Assembly (NCBI GenBank): GCA_041641305.1
Contig: JBEPYN010000002.1
Span: forward strand, 128,001-192,000
Source of the DNA: Nitrososphaerota archaeon
GTDB taxonomy: Archaea; Thermoproteota; Nitrososphaeria_A; Caldarchaeales; Caldarchaeaceae
Length of the DNA: 64,000 nt
Direction: 5' to 3'
The position numbers and the translations under genes were made by a program. The notes under the pieces were generated by a model that was not told the origin of the DNA, ran no database searches, and saw nothing but the letters and a program-made list of their open reading frames with translations. Position 1 is the stretch's first letter. Every line of letters begins with the position of its first letter. Below, one piece after another: positions 1 to 14,844 of the stretch.

Positions 1-236
1 TCCTCCTCTCGGTGACGGTGCTTCTGCCATATATCGCGAGCGTGTACATAGAGGAGCTGCAGCCTTATGCCATGTTTCTCTCTCCCGCCGTGGGGCTTGT
101 GCTGCTGTTTGTGCTTGGAATGTTTCTCGGAAAGTTCTCGAAAATTGATATGGTTAAGACTGGTTTGAAGATGCTGGGGATGGGGGTTGTCACAGCTGTG
201 TTAATTCTGTTGATGGAGATTTTCCTCAACCTGTGA
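1..236 (+). CDS. VIT1/CCC1-family membrane transporter, C-terminal part (5' truncated by window edge)
   Basis: Hydrophobic helices with VIT1-like C-terminal pattern (LLPY...LFVLGMFLGKFSK...GLKML). Confidence 0.6.
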   Translation, partial: LLSVTVLLPYIASVYIEELQPYAMFLSPAVGLVLLFVLGMFLGKFSKIDMVKTGLKMLGMGVVTAVLILLMEIFLNL

Positions 237-5211: not shown

Positions 5212-5316
5212 CCCAACCCATGTGCAAAAAAGCAGCTATTAAACCAAAACATCCACCACACAAAATACCGAAGTCTTGCTTAACGTTTTTAACCAAGTTC
5301 ATGCAGGAAAAACTAA

Positions 5317-7557
5317 ATGCGCTCAGCAGCGTTTACTATACTGCTTGTTGTTGTTTTAAGCCTGCTACCGCACAGCAGCTGGTCTTTCCCCACGCCTCAG
5401 CAGACATCGGACGAATATCGTGTTTTGCCCATAGAGGGCGACCTGTTGGTCAATGTTTTCTTCTACGACGTGGACCCGCAGTGGTTTGGTGCTAGAAACC
5501 TTAACGAGTTGTTGAACATGGTTATCGAAACCGGGATAATCCGGGATAAGGCCCGTTCCCAGATAGCAGCCTTCACCACGGACGAGAACTTGGCCCCATT
5601 CACGTTTGATATTTCATTACGCTTCATAATTCCATCCAACGACATCGTGTCAGAGTATCGTCAACGAATGCGTTCTCTTGTCTCTAAAACACCTTTCCAA
5701 GTGGCCCAGAAAGCTGTTGAGTTTGCAGTGGCCTGGGGTATGCCGCTTGGATGGACCGACCAGACAATAAAGGCCCGCGACGCTTTACGGGTCTTCGCCA
5801 CACTCACCGAAGAATATTTCCCAGAAGTAGCCGGAGGCTACGCAATTTTCTTCTTCTGCAGCATACCTTTCATGAACGGTGAAAGACCAGTCATCTACTA
5901 CACATTCGGCCAATCACCCGACACCGGAAGATACCTGGCCGACTTCGGCATAACGATTTTCGGCGGCCCATGGTGGGGCAGATACTATTACATAGACATC
6001 TGCTCATTTCCGCCCCCACGCTTCCGCGACGTTATCAGACCCATTTACAACATCGGAACCCCGGAGGAACGCGTGACCTATCTCGCAACTCTCATAGACC
6101 TGCTGATAGACATGGGTGGCTTCGTCAAGTCGACTGTTTACCAGCCCAAGTATGGTCTCCAGACCCTTGTAGATGTGGTGGTTATTGATGCTACGGTGGC
6201 TGGTGTCGGTTTCGACATGTTGGTGCGGTACTTTGACGCCGAGATGATGCTGAAAGCCTATACCACTTTGTTGCCTTACAACAAGTTCAACATAAGGCTG
6301 AAACGAGTTGACTTGGCCACGGTGCCTGAGCTGAGAAACACCCTCGTATACACGCAGCAAGGCATTCTCCTCAAAACTTACCAAGCCTATGACATCCTTA
6401 GGCAGAAGGGATACATCGAGGCTTTGGGCGAGCAGCGATACACATACATGCCTGTGATTGTTCTGGTTACGACCACGAACTCGTTCATAGAGGAGCCGGG
6501 TGTACTCGGCCAGGCCTCGCCTGACCCAGATAACCCCACGAAACCCCATCACGCATCGGCGGCAGTTTACTACGAACACATGATAGAACAAGGTATGACC
6601 GTCCTCGTGACACATGAGGCAGGCCACATCTTCGGGCTAAGACACCCCCATGACGACTATGACGAGTATCGCAAATCTCAGTCCAGCTTCTTCCCGCTGA
6701 CATACTTCACCGAAACAATCATGAGCTATAGCGTTTCCTGGGCTTCAGCCGTTGAGCAGAACCTTGTCTTCCCCAACCACTATCCCATGAGAACCTTCTA
6801 CAGCATCTTCGACCTCGACAACATCGACCGTGCCACAATCATCCTACTGCTACAAAACTACGAACAAAACATCCAAACAATTTTATCAACGCTTGAACGC
6901 AACAACATGCGTTTACAGGATATCCCGGAACTTGAGCAGGTGCTTAACGCGGCGAAAGAGATGGCCCGGCTCTCGGTACAAGAGTTTAAGAAACATAACT
7001 ACTTCAACAGACTCACTTTCAAGGGCCTCGGCGCCCAGCATGAAACAGCCTTCGACCTCGCTTTCACCGCTTGGCTATACACAGAGAACACCAAAAACTA
7101 CCTACTCCCGGGCTTGGTTGACGAGCAGCGGAGACTGGGAGGCGAGATCTCACAGCTAACACAGCTGCGTGACCAGCTTAGGAGCGAGGCCGAGAAGGCG
7201 CAGAGAGACCTCGACGATGCACGGGCTAGGCTTGAGGAGAAGAGAAGGGAGCTGTCTGACGCTGAATCACAGCTAAACCAGCTTGAGAAAGCCGTCAGCG
7301 ACGCTGAGGAACGTGCCGCAAAAGCTAAGGCAACAGCAAAAGACATAGAGAACCTTGAAAACAGCTTGAGCAGGGTTTCAGCCGATGTTGAGAAGATGCG
7401 TGAAAGAGTGGAGTCTCTTAGACAGCAGACCAACCTGCTTATTGGTGTCGCGGTGGTTGGGGCGGTTGCCGTCGGAGGAGCCGCTATAGTTGGGCGCAGG
7501 TTCACAACAAGGAGGAGGATGCCTCCTCCGCCTCCGCCGCCTCCACCTGGCGTCTAA
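5317..7557 (+). CDS. Secreted, membrane-anchored zinc metalloprotease (metzincin) with coiled-coil stalk and poly-Pro C-terminus
   Basis: Signal peptide; HEAGHIFGLRHPHD zinc motif; ETIMSY Met-turn; ~100-aa heptad region; C-terminal TM helix followed by RRRMP9GV. Confidence 0.8.
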   Translation: MRSAAFTILLVVVLSLLPHSSWSFPTPQQTSDEYRVLPIEGDLLVNVFFYDVDPQWFGARNLNELLNMVIETGIIRDKARSQIAAFTTDENLAPFTFDISLRFIIPSNDIVSEYRQRMRSLVSKTPFQVAQKAVEFAVAWGMPLGWTDQTIKARDALRVFATLTEEYFPEVAGGYAIFFFCSIPFMNGERPVIYYTFGQSPDTGRYLADFGITIFGGPWWGRYYYIDICSFPPPRFRDVIRPIYNIGTPEERVTYLATLIDLLIDMGGFVKSTVYQPKYGLQTLVDVVVIDATVAGVGFDMLVRYFDAEMMLKAYTTLLPYNKFNIRLKRVDLATVPELRNTLVYTQQGILLKTYQAYDILRQKGYIEALGEQRYTYMPVIVLVTTTNSFIEEPGVLGQASPDPDNPTKPHHASAAVYYEHMIEQGMTVLVTHEAGHIFGLRHPHDDYDEYRKSQSSFFPLTYFTETIMSYSVSWASAVEQNLVFPNHYPMRTFYSIFDLDNIDRATIILLLQNYEQNIQTILSTLERNNMRLQDIPELEQVLNAAKEMARLSVQEFKKHNYFNRLTFKGLGAQHETAFDLAFTAWLYTENTKNYLLPGLVDEQRRLGGEISQLTQLRDQLRSEAEKAQRDLDDARARLEEKRRELSDAESQLNQLEKAVSDAEERAAKAKATAKDIENLENSLSRVSADVEKMRERVESLRQQTNLLIGVAVVGAVAVGGAAIVGRRFTTRRRMPPPPPPPPPGV

Positions 7558-9734
7558 GCCCTTCTTCTAAAGAAGACCAGCGTAACCCCTGCTCCGGCGA
7601 ATAAGACAACCGCCACCCCGGTGAGAACCATGTTCAAGCTTTCCAGCTGAGCCGCATCGGCTTGAGCCCGCTGAAGCTCAAGGTTTTTCTCGCTCAGCTC
7701 TTTCTCCAGCTCTGTTTTTCTCTGGCTAAGCTGCTGCAGGTTAGCTGCTTCTCTCTCCAGCTGGGCAAGCTTTTCCTCCAGCTGTGCAGCCCTTTCACGC
7801 GCAGCCGCTATCTGCTGCGTAACCTGGCTAATCTCATCCTCTGTGTTGCTCTTCTCTCTGCGAATCTGCTCCAATCTCTGGGACAACGTCTCGACCTCGT
7901 TTCTGAGCTGCTCAATATCGGGCGTGAGCCTCTGGTTTTGCAGCAAAGCCGCTTCGAGATAGATTTTCATCAAGTCTGTGGCGGCCCATGCCATGAAGGC
8001 GTAGTCGAGAGAGGTGTCAAGCTGTGCGCCGAAGCCTTTGAAAGTGAGGCGGTCGAAGTAGTTGAATTTCTTGAACTCTTCGACAGCCTGTCGAGCCCAC
8101 TGTTTAGCCGTTGACAGAACGGATTTTAGCGTCTGCAGGTCGTCTAACCTGAGGCCAGCCTCATCCAGCTTGCGCAGTATCTCGGCATAGTTTTTCTCAT
8201 AGTTTTGGAGAAGAAGTGAGATGGTGACTCTGTCGATTGCGTCAAGGTCAAAGATGCTCCAGTAGGTCCGAATCGGATAAAATCCCTCCCTCACCGTTTT
8301 TTGCTTAACACCTTCAACCCAGGAGGTACTGTAAACCATGAAAGTCTCCATAGAATCCGTGTAAATCCATTTAGGCCCCACTTCAATTTCATTCACCTCG
8401 TCAAAATCGTCGTGAGGATGTCTAAGTCCGAGAACATGTCCTATCTCATGAGCCACTGTGACGGCCATTCCCTCGTAGAACAACGAGTAATAGCTAGCCC
8501 CAGCTGTTGCCACTAAACCATACATGGGCTGCTCAGGGTTTTCCAAGGCAATCCCCAGAGCCGGGCCCCAGTCCTCAAAACCAGGTATCAAAACACCTGT
8601 GCTATACTGTGTTACAACAATTATTGTGGGGACGTATTTGTATTCCTCTGTTTCAGCCTCGATTATTCCAGCTGATTTTAAAATGTCGTAGGCTTGGTAG
8701 GGGTCGAAAACAGCCACCTGCTCCTTTCCTCTACGCGTCTCAAACTCATCAACTCTTATGATTGATGAGAAGCCGGGAATTTCATCGACATCATAGAGTC
8801 TTAGGCGGAAGCTGTAGAAGTTATACGGCGTTAAAGTTCTCAACGACGCCTCCGTGAGCTCGATGTCGAAGGAATTCACCAACGTTTCAAAGTTGATACC
8901 CTGTCCAGAAGCATCTACAACTATAACGTCGACGAGAATCTGAAGGTTGTAATATGGAAGATATACCGTGGACTTGACAAACTGGTAGTCAATCAACTCG
9001 TCGACATACTTGGACAATAGTTGAACTCTTTCCTGCGTAGACTGGATAGATAGAACAGATGGATATTCGTCACCTGAGCCGTAGCCTGCACAGATATCGA
9101 TGAAAACATATCTTCCCCACCAAGCGCCTCCATACATGTTCAGAAACAAAACGCCTCCTACTTTCCCGGTCTCAGGCAATATGCCGTAGGTGTAGTAGTT
9201 GGCGCTTTTGCCGAGCGCGTTTACGCTGCAGATGAAGAAAATGGTGTAGCCCTCAAAGGGTGTCTGCAGATACTTATTTGAAAGGTCGATGAGAGTTTTG
9301 AGGGCTGTTGGTGCATGAATACCCGATAATGAGCCGTTGTACTTCTTTTGTATGAGAAGATCCCGTGGAACAGGCTGGTTTAAGCTACGCCAATCGGACC
9401 TGAACTCCTGCAGCGCCGCGCTTCTCAGCTGGAAACCACGCAGCAACACGTCATAGCTGTAGGGTGCGTAAAGGATGCCTTGGTCGGTATACCATGTAAG
9501 CGCAGACTTGGCCTCAGCCCTAACCCCGGTGGCAACCCTCCTCAGCAAATCCTCCAAACCATTCACGCCGAAAAGCGTAAAATCAACATCTACGAAAACG
9601 AGGTTGACCACCAAATCGGACTCGATGGGGAGAACCCTGTAGTCTTCCTGAGCAAAACCATGTGGTAGAAGCGAGGTTAGAAAAAGCATGGCCAGTAGGC
9701 AGACGAGGAAAGCTCTCATTGTCAATTCGGGCAA
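7554..9734 (-). CDS. Secreted, membrane-anchored zinc metalloprotease (metzincin), paralogue of 5317..7557
   Basis: Signal peptide; HEIGHVLGLRHPHD; ETFMVY Met-turn; coiled coil; C-terminal TM helix plus RRRA. Confidence 0.8.
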   Translation of the reverse strand: MPELTMRAFLVCLLAMLFLTSLLPHGFAQEDYRVLPIESDLVVNLVFVDVDFTLFGVNGLEDLLRRVATGVRAEAKSALTWYTDQGILYAPYSYDVLLRGFQLRSAALQEFRSDWRSLNQPVPRDLLIQKKYNGSLSGIHAPTALKTLIDLSNKYLQTPFEGYTIFFICSVNALGKSANYYTYGILPETGKVGGVLFLNMYGGAWWGRYVFIDICAGYGSGDEYPSVLSIQSTQERVQLLSKYVDELIDYQFVKSTVYLPYYNLQILVDVIVVDASGQGINFETLVNSFDIELTEASLRTLTPYNFYSFRLRLYDVDEIPGFSSIIRVDEFETRRGKEQVAVFDPYQAYDILKSAGIIEAETEEYKYVPTIIVVTQYSTGVLIPGFEDWGPALGIALENPEQPMYGLVATAGASYYSLFYEGMAVTVAHEIGHVLGLRHPHDDFDEVNEIEVGPKWIYTDSMETFMVYSTSWVEGVKQKTVREGFYPIRTYWSIFDLDAIDRVTISLLLQNYEKNYAEILRKLDEAGLRLDDLQTLKSVLSTAKQWARQAVEEFKKFNYFDRLTFKGFGAQLDTSLDYAFMAWAATDLMKIYLEAALLQNQRLTPDIEQLRNEVETLSQRLEQIRREKSNTEDEISQVTQQIAAARERAAQLEEKLAQLEREAANLQQLSQRKTELEKELSEKNLELQRAQADAAQLESLNMVLTGVAVVLFAGAGVTLVFFRRRA

Positions 9735-9763
9735 AGAAGTCGTTTATATTTTTATTTTTTTAG

Positions 9764-10090
9764 CTATTGTTTGTTTTGTTTTTTGAGCATGTCTTCAAGC
9801 GTGTAGGTTGATGGTGGTGGAGGTGTTTTCCCTGTGAGCTTTTCCTCGACTGCTACGGTGAGAAGGCTTGTTTTCAACACTTTCTCAAGACGTTTTACCA
9901 GGTCGAGGGGTGGGTTGAACTCGTTCTGCTCAATCTTCTTGATGATTGTTTCTTTCGTCTTCACGAGGGCTGCCAGCTCAGCCTGCGAGAGACCAAGCTT
10001 CTCCCTCTCACGTCGAACAACCTGTCCAAGATCATCCACATACTCATACTCTATCTCGAAATCTTTTCGTCCACGAGCTGGCTTAGCCAT
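9764..10090 (-). CDS. MBF1-like Cro/C1 HTH protein lacking the N-terminal zinc ribbon
   Basis: VDDLGQVVRREREKLGLSQAELAALVKTKETIIKKIEQ...LEKVL and C-terminal TLED (TLGD-like), typical of archaeal MBF1. Confidence 0.78.
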   Translation of the reverse strand: MAKPARGRKDFEIEYEYVDDLGQVVRREREKLGLSQAELAALVKTKETIIKKIEQNEFNPPLDLVKRLEKVLKTSLLTVAVEEKLTGKTPPPPSTYTLEDMLKKQNKQ

Positions 10091-10105
10091 GCATATCCAT
10101 AGTGC

Positions 10106-10798
10106 TTAGGGGGGTTTAAGGTTTTGCTCGATGTAGCAGAGCACGCGTGAGACAACTGTCCAAGCCTCGAGAGGGGTTTGATGTATTGCGAGGGCTTTGT
10201 CGGCGAGGGATTTTGTTTCGGATGTAAAGTCGCCGTGGGGAAAACAGCCAACCATAATCAGAGGCCTTGCATAGCCTGCCAAGGCCGCGGAAAATCTCAA
10301 GGCATTGACATGCTCTCCCCTCTCCGTCAGCAGAATTTTGGTGGACGGGTTAAGGGTCTCGGTCAAGGATTTGAGGGATTTTTTCTCACACCGCAGCAGC
10401 GTCTCACCTGTCTCAGACCTTATCTCCCCCTCTTCGAATAGCTTCTCCACTACGCCTTTAAACCGCTCATATACACGGGGCAGCCTCACACGTGGGTTCA
10501 CATATATGACGAGGCCGCTATTTGTCGAAACGTATGTCTCCAGCTTGTTGGCTTGGTTGAGCGGTGAGCCAAGCGCCTCGAGCAAACAAAAGTGGACAAT
10601 ATCTGGTCTGCCGCGTTTCTCGGCGTCGGGAAGCTTTTTCATGGCGAAATGATGATAAGACTTGTCAAGCAGTATCTGGCCCGGCTTTTTCCCACGCCGC
10701 CTAGCATCCTTAACAACAGCGGGATGCCCCTGTATCTCGGGTGGAACAGTCTCAAGCGCAGCCTCCACCAAAACTAGGAAAACCTTCTCCAACAACAA
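10106..10798 (-). CDS. nep1: 16S rRNA pseudouridine N1-methyltransferase Nep1/Emg1 (SPOUT)
   Basis: EAALETVP, LLDKSYH, RGRPDIVHFCLL, SPLN, RLPRVYERF, GCFPHGDF. Confidence 0.93.
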   Translation of the reverse strand: MLLEKVFLVLVEAALETVPPEIQGHPAVVKDARRRGKKPGQILLDKSYHHFAMKKLPDAEKRGRPDIVHFCLLEALGSPLNQANKLETYVSTNSGLVIYVNPRVRLPRVYERFKGVVEKLFEEGEIRSETGETLLRCEKKSLKSLTETLNPSTKILLTERGEHVNALRFSAALAGYARPLIMVGCFPHGDFTSETKSLADKALAIHQTPLEAWTVVSRVLCYIEQNLKPP

Positions 10799-10860
10799 GC
10801 AACCGGAAAACCCTATAGGCCACAGACCACTTAAACCTGTCCATAGAGTACCATGTAGAT

Positions 10861-11264
10861 GTGCAAGCTAGGCTGATGCCAAACATCACAAGAACCGCGA
10901 AGGGAAATACGGTTTGAACACTTCGCTTATCCTAAATCCCTGCAACAGCAAATACGTGTTACAAACACCATCATCAACACTGCCAGAGAAAAAAATTAGC
11001 CTCGGCGTTACCGGGTTTGAAGCTGGTTTCGGAGAGGGCTAAGGATGGGACCATGCGTCTCATGGGTCAGCCCAACTGGCTAGAAGAGATACTTGTGAAA
11101 GGCTTGGAGAGAAACATCGTCTGGCCGGCATAATGGTCGCGGAAAACGTGGTAATGGTCTACGCCCCAAGAAATGAGGACGAGATAGACACTGTCTACAA
11201 CATCGTTCTACTAGTGGGCAAAGAATACCAGACCCTAGTAGCGTTTAATAGCCAGCCGAGGTAG
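10861..11264 (+). pseudogene. Degraded gene remnant resembling the PF17648 'Luciferase'/DUF5519-like family
   Basis: Frame 11041.. reads KDGTMRLMGQPNWLEEILVKG; after a 1-nt shift at ~11104-11105 it continues GEKHRLAGIMVAENVVMVYAPRNEDEIDTVYNIV to TAG 11262-11264. In-frame stops upstream. Family recognised from memory. Confidence 0.5.
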
Positions 11265-11307: not shown

Positions 11308-14300
11308 TTGAGAACGATGTACAGGGGGCTTTGCCCGAACTGTGGCGGCGACGCAAACGATGAGGAGTTGTTAACTAACGGTGTTTGCGGCCGCTGTGTC
11401 GGCTTCAGGGCCTCGAGCAAAGCAGAGGTTTACCGGTCTCTTCTCGAGACAGGTAGGCTGAGAAATGTGAAAGATGTGTTTGAGCTGGCCATGGAGATGG
11501 AGGAGTTCAGTAACCTTTTCCGGAGACTGGTCGGCTCTGAGCCGTGGTCTCTGCAGGAGACTTGGATGAGGAGGATGCTTCTGGGTAGAAGCTTCTCAAT
11601 CATCGCTCCCACGGGAATCGGGAAAACCACCTTCGGCATAGTCGCCGCGATACATCTACATCAGAAAAAAGGTTTGAAAAGTTACCTCATCTTTCCCAGC
11701 AGCCTACTGGTCCAACATGTTTATGAAAGGTTCGGCGAATATCTTTCAAAACTCGGCGAGGGCCCCCGTGTCACAGCATACTACACCGGAGTCCCAAAAC
11801 CTAAGACGCTTCTTGACGATATCATGTTTGGAGAGTTCGATGTCCTGATAACCACAGACCGGTTCCTCTACAGCCGCTTCGACACGTTAAGGGGGAAGGA
11901 GTTTGACCTGGTTTTCGTAGACGATGTCGACTCCTTTCTCAAGAGCCCGCGAAACATCGACAAGGTTGTGGAGCTGCTGGGCTATAGCCCTGAAGTCGTC
12001 GAAACAGTTCTTAAGAAAATACGTGCCAAGTCTCTTGACGAGAATCCTGAGAACTACAGACGCTCCGTGGGAAAGAAGATTTTAATCGTCTCCGGAGCTA
12101 CCTCGAGGGCGAAGAGAACTCTTAGAGTCAAGATCTTTAGACAGCTTTTTGGCTTCGAGCCGGGCCACACCTTCGAGCTTGTCCGAAACATCGGCACATA
12201 TTATCTGAGGCTTGAGAAACCGGCTGCGATGGTTGCAGCGGAGTTGTTGGAAAAGTTTGGTGGAGGTGCTCTTGTTTTTGTTCCACAGACCCAAGGCGTC
12301 GAGGGCGCCGAGAACCTCGCCGAAGAGCTGAGACGACGCGGTATACCATGCATGGCTTATCAAAAATTCAGCCCAAGCATGCTTGAGAAGTTTGAAAAAG
12401 GAGAGTATGAGGCGCTTATCGGAGTCGCGAGTAGTAGAAACCCGCTGGCGAGGGGAATAGATCTACCCGAGAGAATCAGATATGTTGCCTTCGCCGGCGT
12501 ACCAAGGAGAGAGATAGTGATAGAGCGGGCGGAGTATAGGCCTCAGATGCTGCTTACCGTTTTGAAGCATGTTGCACCGCTTCTCGATGAGCCGGTGGCA
12601 GCCGAGGCTATGCGTCTGATGGGCAGCCTTTCACGGGTAATTCCTACATCGGCAGAGGTGGTTGAGAGAGTTAGGGAAGCCATAGCAACAGGCACCGATT
12701 TGACGGGGTTTGAGGGTCATGTGCAGCGACTCGTGAAACAAGCTAGGACGCTGCTCGACAAAATCATGACACCAGAGATGGTTGCGGCTGTCTCCGAGCG
12801 AGCCGACATCAGGCTCAGCATAACATCCACAGGATTCAGCCTTGTGACACCAGACGTCGACGGCTTCATACAGGCGTCGGGCAGATGCTCGAGACTCTAC
12901 GCGGGAGGAATAACACGCGGCGTAGCAATCATGCTTGTGGACGATGAGAAAAGTTTCTACAGCTTCAGCAAAAGGCTTGAAACAATCTATGACGAGACTA
13001 TGGAGCCGTTTGATATGGAGAAGGTTGCAGAGGACTTTAAGCGTGTGGACGAAGACAGGCGGAAAGTTGCGCTGGCCCGTATGGGGAGGCTGGAGACCGC
13101 CCGTCAAGACATGATGAGAAACGCTCTCGTCGTTGTCGAGTCTCCGACTAAGGCTAGAACAATCGCAACCTTCTTCGGCAGACCCGTCAGACGGAGGATA
13201 AATGGTTTAACAGCCTATGAATCAATCAGCGGAAACGCTCTCCTCACCGTTGTGGCCTCCGGGGGCCATGTCTTCGACCTCACCACATCAGGAGGATACC
13301 ATGGCGTCCTCATAACGGACTCGAAATACATCCCGGTCTACACGACTGTGAACCGTTGCATGGAATGTGGTCAACAGTTCGTCGACTCTGCAAGGTGTCC
13401 ATACTGCGGGTCGGAGAAGGTGTCCAGCAAGTTGACTGTGGTGGAGGCGGTTAGGCAGCTTGCTCTTGAAGCCAACGAGGTGCTCGTCGCCACAGACCCT
13501 GACGCCGAGGGTGAAAAAATAGGCTATGACATCTACTGTTTTGTGAAGCCGTATAACGAACGGGTCAAGCGTCTCGAATTCCATGAGATAACGAGAAAAG
13601 CACTTGCAGCAGCCCTTGCGTCTCCGAGAGATGTTAAGGAGAGCCTCGTCGAGGCCCAGCTGCTCCGCAGAATCGAGGATAGGTGGGTCGGGTTTGAGTT
13701 GAGCAAAAAGGTGCAGGAAATTTTTGGGAGGAAGAATTTATCGGCGGGAAGGGTTCAGACACCTGTTCTAGGATGGGTTGTCAACAGGACAGAGGAAGCG
13801 GCTAAGAAAATCCCTGCTCTAGCTATCACGCTCGCGGACGGTCTGGTGTTCGAGTTTCTTAACCCAGCTGAATTGGATAAGATGGAGGAGCTTTTCAACA
13901 GAGGCAGCCTCACATGCTCTGTCGAGGTCTCTTCAGAGCTGCGAGTTGTTGCCCCAGCGCCTCCATACACGACCGACTCGATGCTAAGAGATGCGTGGCA
14001 ATATCTCAGGATGGGTGCGGCTGAGGCGATGGCGGCGGCCCAAACACTCTTCGAATCAGGTTTGATAACCTATCACCGAACAGATTCAACAACCGTCTCA
14101 ACCACCGGCCTCGGCGTAGCCAAGGCATACATAGAGGACAAGTTTCCCACATTCTTCAAGCCAAGAACCTACAGCCGCGAAGGCGCCCACGAATGCATAA
14201 GGCCAACGAAACCCCTCGACGAGAAAACCCTCAGCTACTACATATCCTCAAACATTCTCAGAACCGTGGCGAAAATTGGCAAAAGAGAGTTGGCGCTCTA

Positions 14301-14844
14301 TGGCTTGATTTTCAGACGGTTCATGGCGAGCCAGATGCCCGAAGCCCGTGTATTATATCAACGGCTAACCGTCAAAATGTTGTCAAACGTGCTAGAGGTC
14401 GAGAGACCCGTTGAGATAGTGGAGGAAGGCTTCCTAAGGTTTAACCCGGTAGTCACCGTCCAGCCACGTGTGGAGCCGGGAACAAGGAAAGTTGTCGCCA
14501 TGCAGGTCAGAAAAGTGCCCGCGGCAAGGCTATTCACCGAAGGCGAGCTCATAGCCATGATGAAGAGCAGGGGAATAGGCAGACCCAGCACCTACGCAAA
14601 AATCATCCAAACACTCTACGAAAGAAACTACATCTTTCAAAACGCTGGAAGAATAATCTCCACAAAACTCGGCAAAGCGGTTTACCGCTATCTATCCAAC
14701 ACCTTCGGCGAATTCGTCTCAGAAGACTTGACGAGAAAACTCGAGAGAGTTATGGACGAGGTTGAAGAAGGCCAAAAAGACTACATAGAAGTTCTGAGAG
14801 AGCTATACGGCTCATTAAAGACGTTCACAGCCCTTACGAAATAA
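11308..14844 (+). CDS. rgy: Reverse gyrase
   Basis: N-terminal CPNC..CGRC Zn finger, APTGIGKT, DDVD, QASGRCSRL, VESPTKARTI, second Zn finger CMEC..CPYC, DPDAEGE Toprim, LSAGRVQTP, ITYHRTDS catalytic Tyr. Confidence 0.97.
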   Translation: MRTMYRGLCPNCGGDANDEELLTNGVCGRCVGFRASSKAEVYRSLLETGRLRNVKDVFELAMEMEEFSNLFRRLVGSEPWSLQETWMRRMLLGRSFSIIAPTGIGKTTFGIVAAIHLHQKKGLKSYLIFPSSLLVQHVYERFGEYLSKLGEGPRVTAYYTGVPKPKTLLDDIMFGEFDVLITTDRFLYSRFDTLRGKEFDLVFVDDVDSFLKSPRNIDKVVELLGYSPEVVETVLKKIRAKSLDENPENYRRSVGKKILIVSGATSRAKRTLRVKIFRQLFGFEPGHTFELVRNIGTYYLRLEKPAAMVAAELLEKFGGGALVFVPQTQGVEGAENLAEELRRRGIPCMAYQKFSPSMLEKFEKGEYEALIGVASSRNPLARGIDLPERIRYVAFAGVPRREIVIERAEYRPQMLLTVLKHVAPLLDEPVAAEAMRLMGSLSRVIPTSAEVVERVREAIATGTDLTGFEGHVQRLVKQARTLLDKIMTPEMVAAVSERADIRLSITSTGFSLVTPDVDGFIQASGRCSRLYAGGITRGVAIMLVDDEKSFYSFSKRLETIYDETMEPFDMEKVAEDFKRVDEDRRKVALARMGRLETARQDMMRNALVVVESPTKARTIATFFGRPVRRRINGLTAYESISGNALLTVVASGGHVFDLTTSGGYHGVLITDSKYIPVYTTVNRCMECGQQFVDSARCPYCGSEKVSSKLTVVEAVRQLALEANEVLVATDPDAEGEKIGYDIYCFVKPYNERVKRLEFHEITRKALAAALASPRDVKESLVEAQLLRRIEDRWVGFELSKKVQEIFGRKNLSAGRVQTPVLGWVVNRTEEAAKKIPALAITLADGLVFEFLNPAELDKMEELFNRGSLTCSVEVSSELRVVAPAPPYTTDSMLRDAWQYLRMGAAEAMAAAQTLFESGLITYHRTDSTTVSTTGLGVAKAYIEDKFPTFFKPRTYSREGAHECIRPTKPLDEKTLSYYISSNILRTVAKIGKRELALYGLIFRRFMASQMPEARVLYQRLTVKMLSNVLEVERPVEIVEEGFLRFNPVVTVQPRVEPGTRKVVAMQVRKVPAARLFTEGELIAMMKSRGIGRPSTYAKIIQTLYERNYIFQNAGRIISTKLGKAVYRYLSNTFGEFVSEDLTRKLERVMDEVEEGQKDYIEVLRELYGSLKTFTALTK

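Follow-up and report, generated by a model that had tools for sequence, protein, structure and literature searches.

What do two long genes that converge tail to tail place on the surface of an uncultured hot-spring archaeon, and how do their products relate to known proteases? The question is raised by genes A and B in a 64,000-nucleotide stretch (the window) of a Nitrososphaerota archaeon of the order Caldarchaeales (contig JBEPYN010000002.1, positions 128,001 to 192,000). Both products are probably active zinc-dependent surface metzincin endopeptidases of an uncharacterised family, possibly kin of the ancestor of PIGS, a subunit of the eukaryotic glycosylphosphatidylinositol (GPI) transamidase, the machine that puts GPI lipid anchors on proteins; this reading draws on the two sequences and on a predicted structure. 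The first-pass annotation of the window had described two convergent genes of about 730 residues with stop codons overlapping at 7554-7557. Both the open reading frames and the CTAA at that position confirm the arrangement, with TAA (7555-7557) terminating gene A and TAG (complement of 7554-7556) terminating gene B. The pair is laid out as follows.

5317..7557, plus strand: gene A (P0001), 746 residues from an ATG start, a predicted stalked, membrane-anchored metzincin with a poly-proline tail
7554..9734, minus strand: gene B (P0002), 726 residues from TTG, a predicted stalked metzincin paralogue without the proline tail
7554..7557, no strand: overlapping stop codons of the convergent genes A and B, CTAA in the sequence

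The evidence that carries the enzymatic reading lies in the active-site region, whose elements occupy these positions.

6613..6654, plus strand: zinc site of gene A, HEAGHIFGLRHPHD, with H433, E434, H437 and H443
6715..6729, plus strand: Met-turn of gene A, T467-x-M469-x-Y471, with the tyrosine found in astacins and serralysins
8409..8450, minus strand: zinc site of gene B, HEIGHVLGLRHPHD, with H429, E430, H433 and H439
8331..8345, minus strand: Met-turn of gene B, T464-x-M466-x-Y468, invariant in clade B

The metzincin-type zinc motif with Met-turn, as originally claimed, holds for both proteins: HE.GH..GLRHPHD and a downstream T.M.Y occur in each. The metzincin consensus HExxHxxGxxH/D appears as HEAGHIFGLRH in A and HEIGHVLGLRH in B, the Met-turn methionine (M469 in A, M466 in B) follows the third histidine by 26-27 residues, and the catalytic domain shows the five-stranded sheet, active-site helix and C-terminal helix of metzincin clan MA(M). 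Two alignments were used, A1 with 19 sequences and A2 with 26 sequences reaching down to 16% identity. H433, E434, H437, G440, L441, H443, P444 and Y471 (A numbering) are invariant in both; T467 and M469 are invariant in A1, and M469 is at least 90% conserved in A2. The zinc-site and Met-turn residues are also invariant inside each paralogue clade.

No family exceeded its curated cut-off when A and B were scanned against Pfam and NCBIfam, so the two proteins are metzincins by motif and fold yet stand outside the curated families, in agreement with the earlier remark that no characterised family was recognised for this architecture. Matches to coiled-coil families (SMC, Rad50, GAS and others) in the same databases were dismissed as compositional. 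A profile running from zinc motif to Met-turn matches serralysins (E 2e-4), and A and B share the HExxHxxGLxHP zinc motif and the tyrosine of the S/T-x-M-x-Y Met-turn with serralysins (M10B) and astacins (M12A). Unlike these families, they lack the RTX beta-roll, the type I secretion signal and the astacin N-terminal activation segment; the serralysin alignment is limited to the motif region, and helices, a coiled coil and a membrane helix follow the catalytic lobe. The NCBIfam model Zn_serralysin (NF035945), whose cut-off is 500, gives 13.1 and 16.7 bits; Astacin reaches 20.6, below its cut-off of 22.5. The archaemetzincin AmzA (M54; PDB 2x7m, 3zvs, 3lmc) differs in being a small, cytoplasmic, single-domain protein with a Cys4 zinc finger. 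A and B have no cysteine cluster past the motif, and the archaemetzincin models score below their cut-offs (PF07998, 14 bits against 24.4; NF033823, 14.1 against 145). The best of the adamalysin/reprolysin (M12B) models, Reprolysin_5, falls short of its cut-off of 27 with 24.8 bits, and proline follows the third histidine in place of the aspartate of the reprolysin motif HExxHxxGxxHD.

The overall build was examined with an AlphaFold2 model of A made with 19 homologues (predicted local distance difference test, pLDDT, 77; predicted template modelling score, pTM, 0.73). Residues 33-282 and 283-495 each form an alpha/beta domain, two helices lie within 497-558, and an unbroken helix runs from 578 to 702. 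Together with hydropathy and sequence comparison, the model divides the two proteins as listed below.

5317..5385, plus strand: predicted signal peptide of gene A, residues 1-23, hydrophobic window 1-24, with cleavage predicted after SWS
5413..6162, plus strand: N-lobe of gene A, residues 33-282, metzincin-like alpha/beta domain without zinc motif, equivalent to the DUF7906 region of distant relatives
6163..6801, plus strand: catalytic metzincin lobe of gene A, residues 283-495
6802..7047, plus strand: helical lobe of gene A, residues 496-577, with helices 497-528 and 537-558 and a conserved NYF.R..FKGLGAQ loop
7048..7422, plus strand: coiled-coil stalk of gene A, residues 578-702, a single ~125-residue helix measuring about 18 nm
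7429..7497, plus strand: C-terminal transmembrane helix of gene A, residues 705-727, hydropathy peak 2.6 at 707-725
7498..7554, plus strand: cytoplasmic tail of gene A, a basic cluster and then nine prolines
9651..9719, minus strand: probable signal peptide of gene B, counted from ATG 9719, with cleavage predicted after GFA, from hydropathy and the starts of homologues
8940..9644, minus strand: N-lobe of gene B, zinc-less metzincin-like domain that aligns with the A N-lobe
7644..8012, minus strand: coiled-coil stalk of gene B, residues ~575-697, aligning with the A stalk
7575..7640, minus strand: C-terminal transmembrane helix of gene B, residues 699-720, followed only by FFRRRA, from hydropathy and sequence

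By hydropathy each protein has an N-terminal, signal-like hydrophobic segment and one C-terminal hydrophobic segment, which bears out the signal peptide and C-terminal membrane helix assigned to both; small residues at -1 and -3 mark the putative cleavage site of A. The large N-terminal domain noted at the outset is present and proves to be a metzincin-like fold itself. It has no HExxH motif, and when it was folded alone the best 22 of 48,161 chains in the structure search were all metzincin folds. The head therefore joins two metzincin-like lobes in tandem, the first without zinc site and the second probably active, and an internal tandem duplication of lobes is suggested by the predicted folds only.

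The long helix is read as a coiled coil because the a/d heptad positions are hydrophobic at 72% in A and 70% in B in the best register. A coiled coil of about 100 residues had been proposed; the heptad-bearing helix is there, and its length in the model is ~125 residues. Co-folding of the A stalk with the B stalk scored 0.48 against 0.00 for the best control ('weak support'), with contact agreement between runs of at least 93% and partner pLDDT of at least 80. In the benchmark 58 of 80 solved complexes pass the mark, as do 2 of 110 mismatched pairs; at scores of 0.60 or below only 7 of the 80 solved complexes pass, and both passing mismatches lie there too. Heptads and co-folding are thus consistent with the oligomeric stalk envisaged earlier, and since paralogues can pass for a true partner, the score does not separate homo- from hetero-oligomers.

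Clade A keeps the poly-proline run, as do deep single-copy relatives within Caldarchaeales, and clade B has none, so the tail is taken to be ancestral and lost by B. It is a possible docking site linking the surface enzyme to a cytoplasmic partner. At the C-termini of four relatives (L032, L033, L034 and P0030), 5-10 prolines follow the membrane helix and basic cluster, and the run was lost in genera g6 and g14. In a Bathyarchaeia relative (L073:35-2140) and a metagenomic relative (P0025), a C-terminal cytoplasmic zinc-ribbon stands past the membrane helix in place of the proline tail.

The likeness of the head to PIGS emerged from structure searches. Foldseek against the PDB places chain S of the human GPI transamidase first for the A model (E 6e-11, ~660 columns), and fungal Gpi17 chains reach Z 9.4-9.5. 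In the exhaustive structure search, PIGS stands 5-6 Z units above every other fold and is the only solved chain covering all three lobes, with ~410 of ~470 luminal residues aligned; the N-lobe contributes at least 80-90 of these, because the catalytic and helical lobes comprise at most ~330 residues. The model has the three-lobed luminal fold with a central metzincin-like lobe, and A/B and PIGS agree in the order of their lobes and in having a membrane helix follow the head. PIGS has membrane helices at both ends; A and B have the C-terminal one, and their N-terminal segment looks like a cleavable signal peptide.

Residues 222-398 of PIGS fold like archaemetzincin without the tri-histidine site and the methionine (PMC9098846, 7wld structure). 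The protein is described as 'shamrock-like', with PIGK held in its grooves, and its function is termed 'less clear' (PMC9098846). PIGS/Gpi17 (PDB 7w72, 7wld, 8imx, 8imy chain S; PF10510) is thus a pseudo-enzyme without HExxH and Met-turn (PMC9098846), whereas both are invariant in the A/B family. It has an N-terminal membrane helix and no stalk, while A and B have a probable cleaved signal peptide and a ~125-residue coiled coil, and it works with PIGK, PIGT, GPAA1 and PIGU in a five-subunit complex, these four having no matches in the A/B genome. On the predicted structure, the heads of A and B are structural counterparts of PIGS with the active site intact, and shared ancestry of the family with PIGS appears about evenly balanced.

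In the proposed mechanism, A and B would be exported through a cleavable Sec signal peptide and anchored by the single C-terminal membrane helix evident in the sequence. The ~125-residue heptad helix would pair as A-A, B-B or A-B to form a stalk of ~18 nm, bearing a three-lobed head composed of the zinc-less metzincin-like N-lobe, the catalytic lobe and the small helical lobe. H433, H437 and H443 would bind zinc with E434 as general base, M469 would form the Met-turn, and Y471 may act as an extra ligand or switch as in astacins and serralysins. If PIGS is a guide, substrate or partner probably docks on the two non-catalytic lobes and in the grooves that separate them. The likely job would be cleavage of extracellular proteins or of proteins on the cell surface, at a set distance above the membrane, with copy A having kept the putatively ancestral cytoplasmic poly-proline tail and copy B having lost it. 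The architecture given in the first-pass annotation is sound, and the roles named there, stalks reaching through the S-layer with peptide foraging or surface remodelling, are conjectural.

Other stalked or membrane-anchored systems offer partial parallels. SlaB, the Sulfolobales S-layer anchor, is trimeric in its published structure, and the trimer is known for SlaB only. Like A and B, it has a long coiled-coil stalk with a single C-terminal membrane helix at the end, and a profile matches this stalk and helix (8qox_B residues 332-473) with E 2e-7. Its N-terminal beta-sandwich domains bind the SlaA canopy and include no enzyme, unlike the A/B head, in which a helical lobe accompanies two metzincin-like lobes of the alpha/beta type. 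The genome's two other weak matches, L003 and L004, were set aside as unrelated coiled-coil proteins, not SlaB-like anchors. Tetrabrachion with its STABLE proteases in Staphylothermus marinus holds a protease off an archaeal cell on a coiled-coil stalk; unlike in A and B, the protease there is a distinct, subtilisin-like protein that attaches to the stalk by non-covalent contacts. ADAM sheddases resemble A as metzincins with one C-terminal membrane helix and a cytoplasmic proline-rich tail, and differ from both proteins in having a prodomain with cysteine switch, disintegrin and EGF domains, and no coiled coil.

The range of the family was explored at several depths. An exhaustive search of 1.84 billion cluster representatives returned only 37 of them at E < 1e-3, and those with names are all 'hypothetical' proteins of Nitrososphaerota or Aigarchaeota. 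The gene is present in 21 of 75 genomes of the order and, in a sample of the phylum, in 35 of 400 genomes and 21 of 161 genera. Carriers in the species-representative scan are Candidatus Caldarchaeum, Terraquivivens, Geocrenenecus, Pelearchaeum, Benthortus, Nitrososphaerales, Nitrosomirales and Nitrosopumilales, with more distant ones in Bathyarchaeia, Thor-, Hermod- and Heimdallarchaeota, Chloroflexota and Actinomycetota (Kribbella, Actinoplanes). An ectodomain profile built from Caldarchaeales only finds the N-lobe and the catalytic-plus-helical part, in that order, in Hermod-, Thor- and Heimdallarchaeota, Bathyarchaeia, Chloroflexota and actinomycetes. Relatives with both lobes are therefore patchy but widespread in archaea and some bacteria and not confined to Caldarchaeales; the coiled-coil stalk is a Caldarchaeales feature.

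Asgard homologues are many, several being annotated 'M66 family metalloprotease'. The Thor and Hermod proteins and one of two Heimdall proteins (806-829 residues) have hydrophobic helices at both ends, which is the PIGS topology. An intact HExxHxxGLxH is present in the Thor, Hermod and both Heimdall proteins, none of which has room for a long stalk. Loci with a DUF7906-like N-lobe were recorded in Thor-, Hermod- and Heimdallarchaeota (L077:1147-3567, L084:1147-3567, L113:1429-3918).

The Pfam model DUF7906 (PF25483) matches the N-lobe of two distant homologues above its cut-off of 27 (P0020, 33.4 bits; P0022, 28.4 bits), with weaker matches in Thorarchaeota, Bathyarchaeia, Nitrosomirales and Kribbella proteins. 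It is not among the best 25 of the 34-36 Pfam families that match A and B at E <= 1, so the tie of A and B to this family runs through the distant homologues. A six-frame search of the source genome gave no DUF7906 match and was uninformative, the controls being silent as well. DUF7906 proteins are uncharacterised and occur in plants (ESM Atlas), Asgard and Nitrososphaerales archaea with the lobe order of A and B; unlike A and B, those from Nitrososphaerales lack both stalk and membrane helix, and their C-terminal end is a beta-rich domain. In the ESM Atlas, a Thorarchaeota model retrieves a plant cluster that is 98% DUF7906, with 529 aligned at a template modelling score (TM) of 0.51, and a fungal PIG-S cluster, listed with 372 aligned at TM 0.61; these retrievals are leads, not proof. 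A profile made from distant members recovered neither plant nor PIGS sequences, its candidate list being filled by Asgard proteins.

The relationship between the two genes is clear from their sequences. A and B align end to end in BLASTP with 38% identity over 760 columns (E 9e-147), and the shared blocks listed by the first-pass annotation (YRVLPIE.DL, GG.WWGRY..IDIC, FVKSTVY, SIFDLD.IDR and EFKK.NYF.RLTFKG.GAQ) were each found in both proteins. Within Candidatus Caldarchaeum, orthologues of gene A are 51-79% identical and those of gene B 49-70%. In a maximum-likelihood tree, clades A and B are sisters inside the genus (Shimodaira-Hasegawa-like approximate likelihood-ratio test, SH-aLRT, 99), with the single-copy genes of other genera outside. 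Both copies occur in 8 of 11 genus genomes and always converge, other Caldarchaeales having one copy. Tree and conserved convergence back the old inverted duplication proposed earlier, and the comparison points to a single event at the base of Candidatus Caldarchaeum. The 3' ends nearly abut, with ~50 bp between profile matches and overlapping open reading frames in the three genomes examined. No genus genome has a single copy only; joint loss is weak evidence, because A and B are adjacent.

Synteny across Caldarchaeales, which had been recommended for checking, shows the convergent pair kept in the genus and its neighbours not kept. No gene neighbours conserved across genera were found; the surrounding genes are common only to the nearest genome, and other species have the pair or the single gene in unrelated surroundings. 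In one genome of a sister genus, the single copy L035 (G014:C11, ~9240-11250) is broken, with two TGA and one TAA inside the match, and is a decaying copy.

How far the PIGS likeness reflects descent has to be weighed against several results that count against the reading of A and B as active surface metzincins akin to a PIGS ancestor. PF10510 (PIG-S) found nothing at E <= 10 in the source genome, nor in five Asgard and Bathyarchaeia genomes carrying relatives, and PIGS is not among the best 60 of 101 PDB-sequence matches of the ectodomain profile at E <= 10. The superposition on PIGS has a root-mean-square deviation of 5.8-6.7 Å and was made on a predicted model. The N-lobe alone aligns best to the PIGS metzincin-like lobe (222-399), not to the PIGS N-lobe, so the lobe-by-lobe correspondence at the N-terminal end is less sure. 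Profile-profile comparison of the N-lobe with the catalytic lobe gave a probability of 1.2%, with no sequence similarity. The SlaB match may reflect coiled-coil composition alone. Four genus genomes, two of them 95% complete, have neither copy, and the pair is therefore dispensable. The likeness to PIGS could accordingly be convergent or generic, a matter of two alpha/beta lobes plus helices, with the family being one more bacterial-type metzincin that carries accessory domains: no sequence signal joins it to PIG-S, metzincin-like folds are common, the superposition deviates widely, and the Z of fungal Gpi17 is only 9.4-9.5. We hold this to be a serious possibility, short of likely, since PIGS is the sole solved chain spanning the three lobes and lies well above every other fold, with its lobes in matching order and a membrane helix following the head. 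An Asgard relative with a separately predicted structure, moreover, retrieves PIG-S together with eukaryotic DUF7906, whose Pfam model matches archaeal N-lobes by sequence. That the family is the living, active representative of the lineage that gave PIGS/Gpi17 and the plant DUF7906 proteins, PIGS being a dead archaeal surface metzincin recruited as a scaffold, is put slightly short of an even prospect.

Two further explanations concern function. A and B might be mainly structural, either a SlaB-like stalk and anchor for a surface layer or partner or a PIGS-like scaffold, with proteolysis absent or secondary. The resemblance of stalk and C-terminal membrane helix to SlaB would fit such a role, as would a head with the fold of PIGS, a non-catalytic scaffold whose grooves grip the protease PIGK; of the two metzincin-like lobes, one is inactive already, and conservation of the poly-proline tail on the cytoplasmic side hints at a connection through the membrane. 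Zinc ligands, catalytic glutamate, methionine and tyrosine are nevertheless kept in relatives only 16-22% identical, which is unexpected for a pure scaffold, the head lacks the SlaB beta-sandwich domains, and the absence of the genes from four genus genomes would be improbable for a sole S-layer anchor; a chiefly structural role is thus judged unlikely. Far less credible still is that A and B serve as subunits in an archaeal machine for anchoring proteins to lipid, a GPI-transamidase forerunner that cuts C-terminal signal peptides and attaches lipid, even with the full-length fold similarity to PIGS, the C-terminal membrane helix in both and the Asgard relatives with hydrophobic helices at N- and C-terminus. 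The models PF01650, PF04113, PF04114 and PF06728 (Peptidase_C13/PIGK, Gpi16, Gaa1 and PIG-U) have no match at E <= 1 in the 99.3% complete genome, so no archaeal transamidase is implied, and the idea of a proto-transamidase complex was rejected on that ground. No gene neighbour is conserved across genera, and the ~18 nm stalk would set the active site far off the membrane, whereas the transamidase site lies ~22 Å above it (PMC9098846).

Expression and surroundings of the pair complete the description. Two promoter elements were read from the sequence.

5286..5292, plus strand: putative TATA-like box TTTTTAA, ~28 nt 5' of the gene A ATG
9743..9750, minus strand: putative TATA-like box AATATAAA, ~27 nt 5' of the gene B ATG

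The position of the first box suggests a leaderless or short-leader transcript for gene A. Gene B most likely starts at the ATG at 9719-9717 (residue 6), giving 721 residues, because homologues begin there and a TATA-like box lies ~27 nt upstream. With such boxes ahead of both ATGs, genes A and B look independently transcribed and leaderless. The flanks encode an aconitase, an HTH_3 protein, a Nep1/EMG1 methyltransferase, a reverse-gyrase-like protein, an IF-2B family protein and a flavoprotein; these are housekeeping genes without evident link to the pair. Directly upstream of gene B, on the same strand, window positions 9764-10798 hold the Nep1/EMG1 rRNA methyltransferase and small HTH_3 genes; their order is common only to the nearest genome, and a functional operon with gene B is therefore improbable. 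Positions 11308-14844 encode a 1178-residue protein with DEAD helicase, Toprim and topoisomerase IA domains, the build of a reverse gyrase, which fits a hyperthermophilic host.

Relative to the nearest genome (L024 8665-13055), the pair has diverged far more than its surroundings, with amino-acid identities of 75% and 70% against 90-95% in the flanks. Nonsynonymous divergence (dN) is 0.18-0.21 for the pair against 0.03-0.05 for aconitase, Nep1 and HTH, and synonymous divergence (dS) is saturated at 1.7-2.4 against 0.5-0.9. The dN/dS ratio of the pair, ~0.08-0.12, together with these values suggests a fast-evolving or recombining surface locus under purifying selection. The locus is either much older than its flanks or evolving faster, which may reflect allele replacement by recombination at a surface-protein locus.

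Metzincins are well known, yet the build seen here is not known from earlier descriptions, joining dead and live metzincin-like lobes, a helical lobe, a ~18 nm stalk, a membrane anchor and a proline tail. Previously, the only relative reported for PIGS was a loose, one-lobe likeness to archaemetzincin. In the literature searched, no paper joined the GPI transamidase with Asgard archaea, the 2022 structure paper was the only one to connect Gpi17 with metzincins, and nothing further turned up on DUF7906. What is new is the presence in archaea, Asgard lineages included, of predicted whole-head counterparts of PIGS with an intact active site. With them, the origin of a subunit of a eukaryotic endoplasmic reticulum complex becomes testable, and A and B offer a tractable, thermostable model for what the PIGS fold binds. 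If the PIGS lineage reading is true, the family would be the first prokaryotic root for a GPI-transamidase subunit and would hint at the original ligand of the grooves. For archaeal cell biology, the pair provides, in an uncultured hot-spring lineage, a candidate protease positioned at a set height within the cell envelope.

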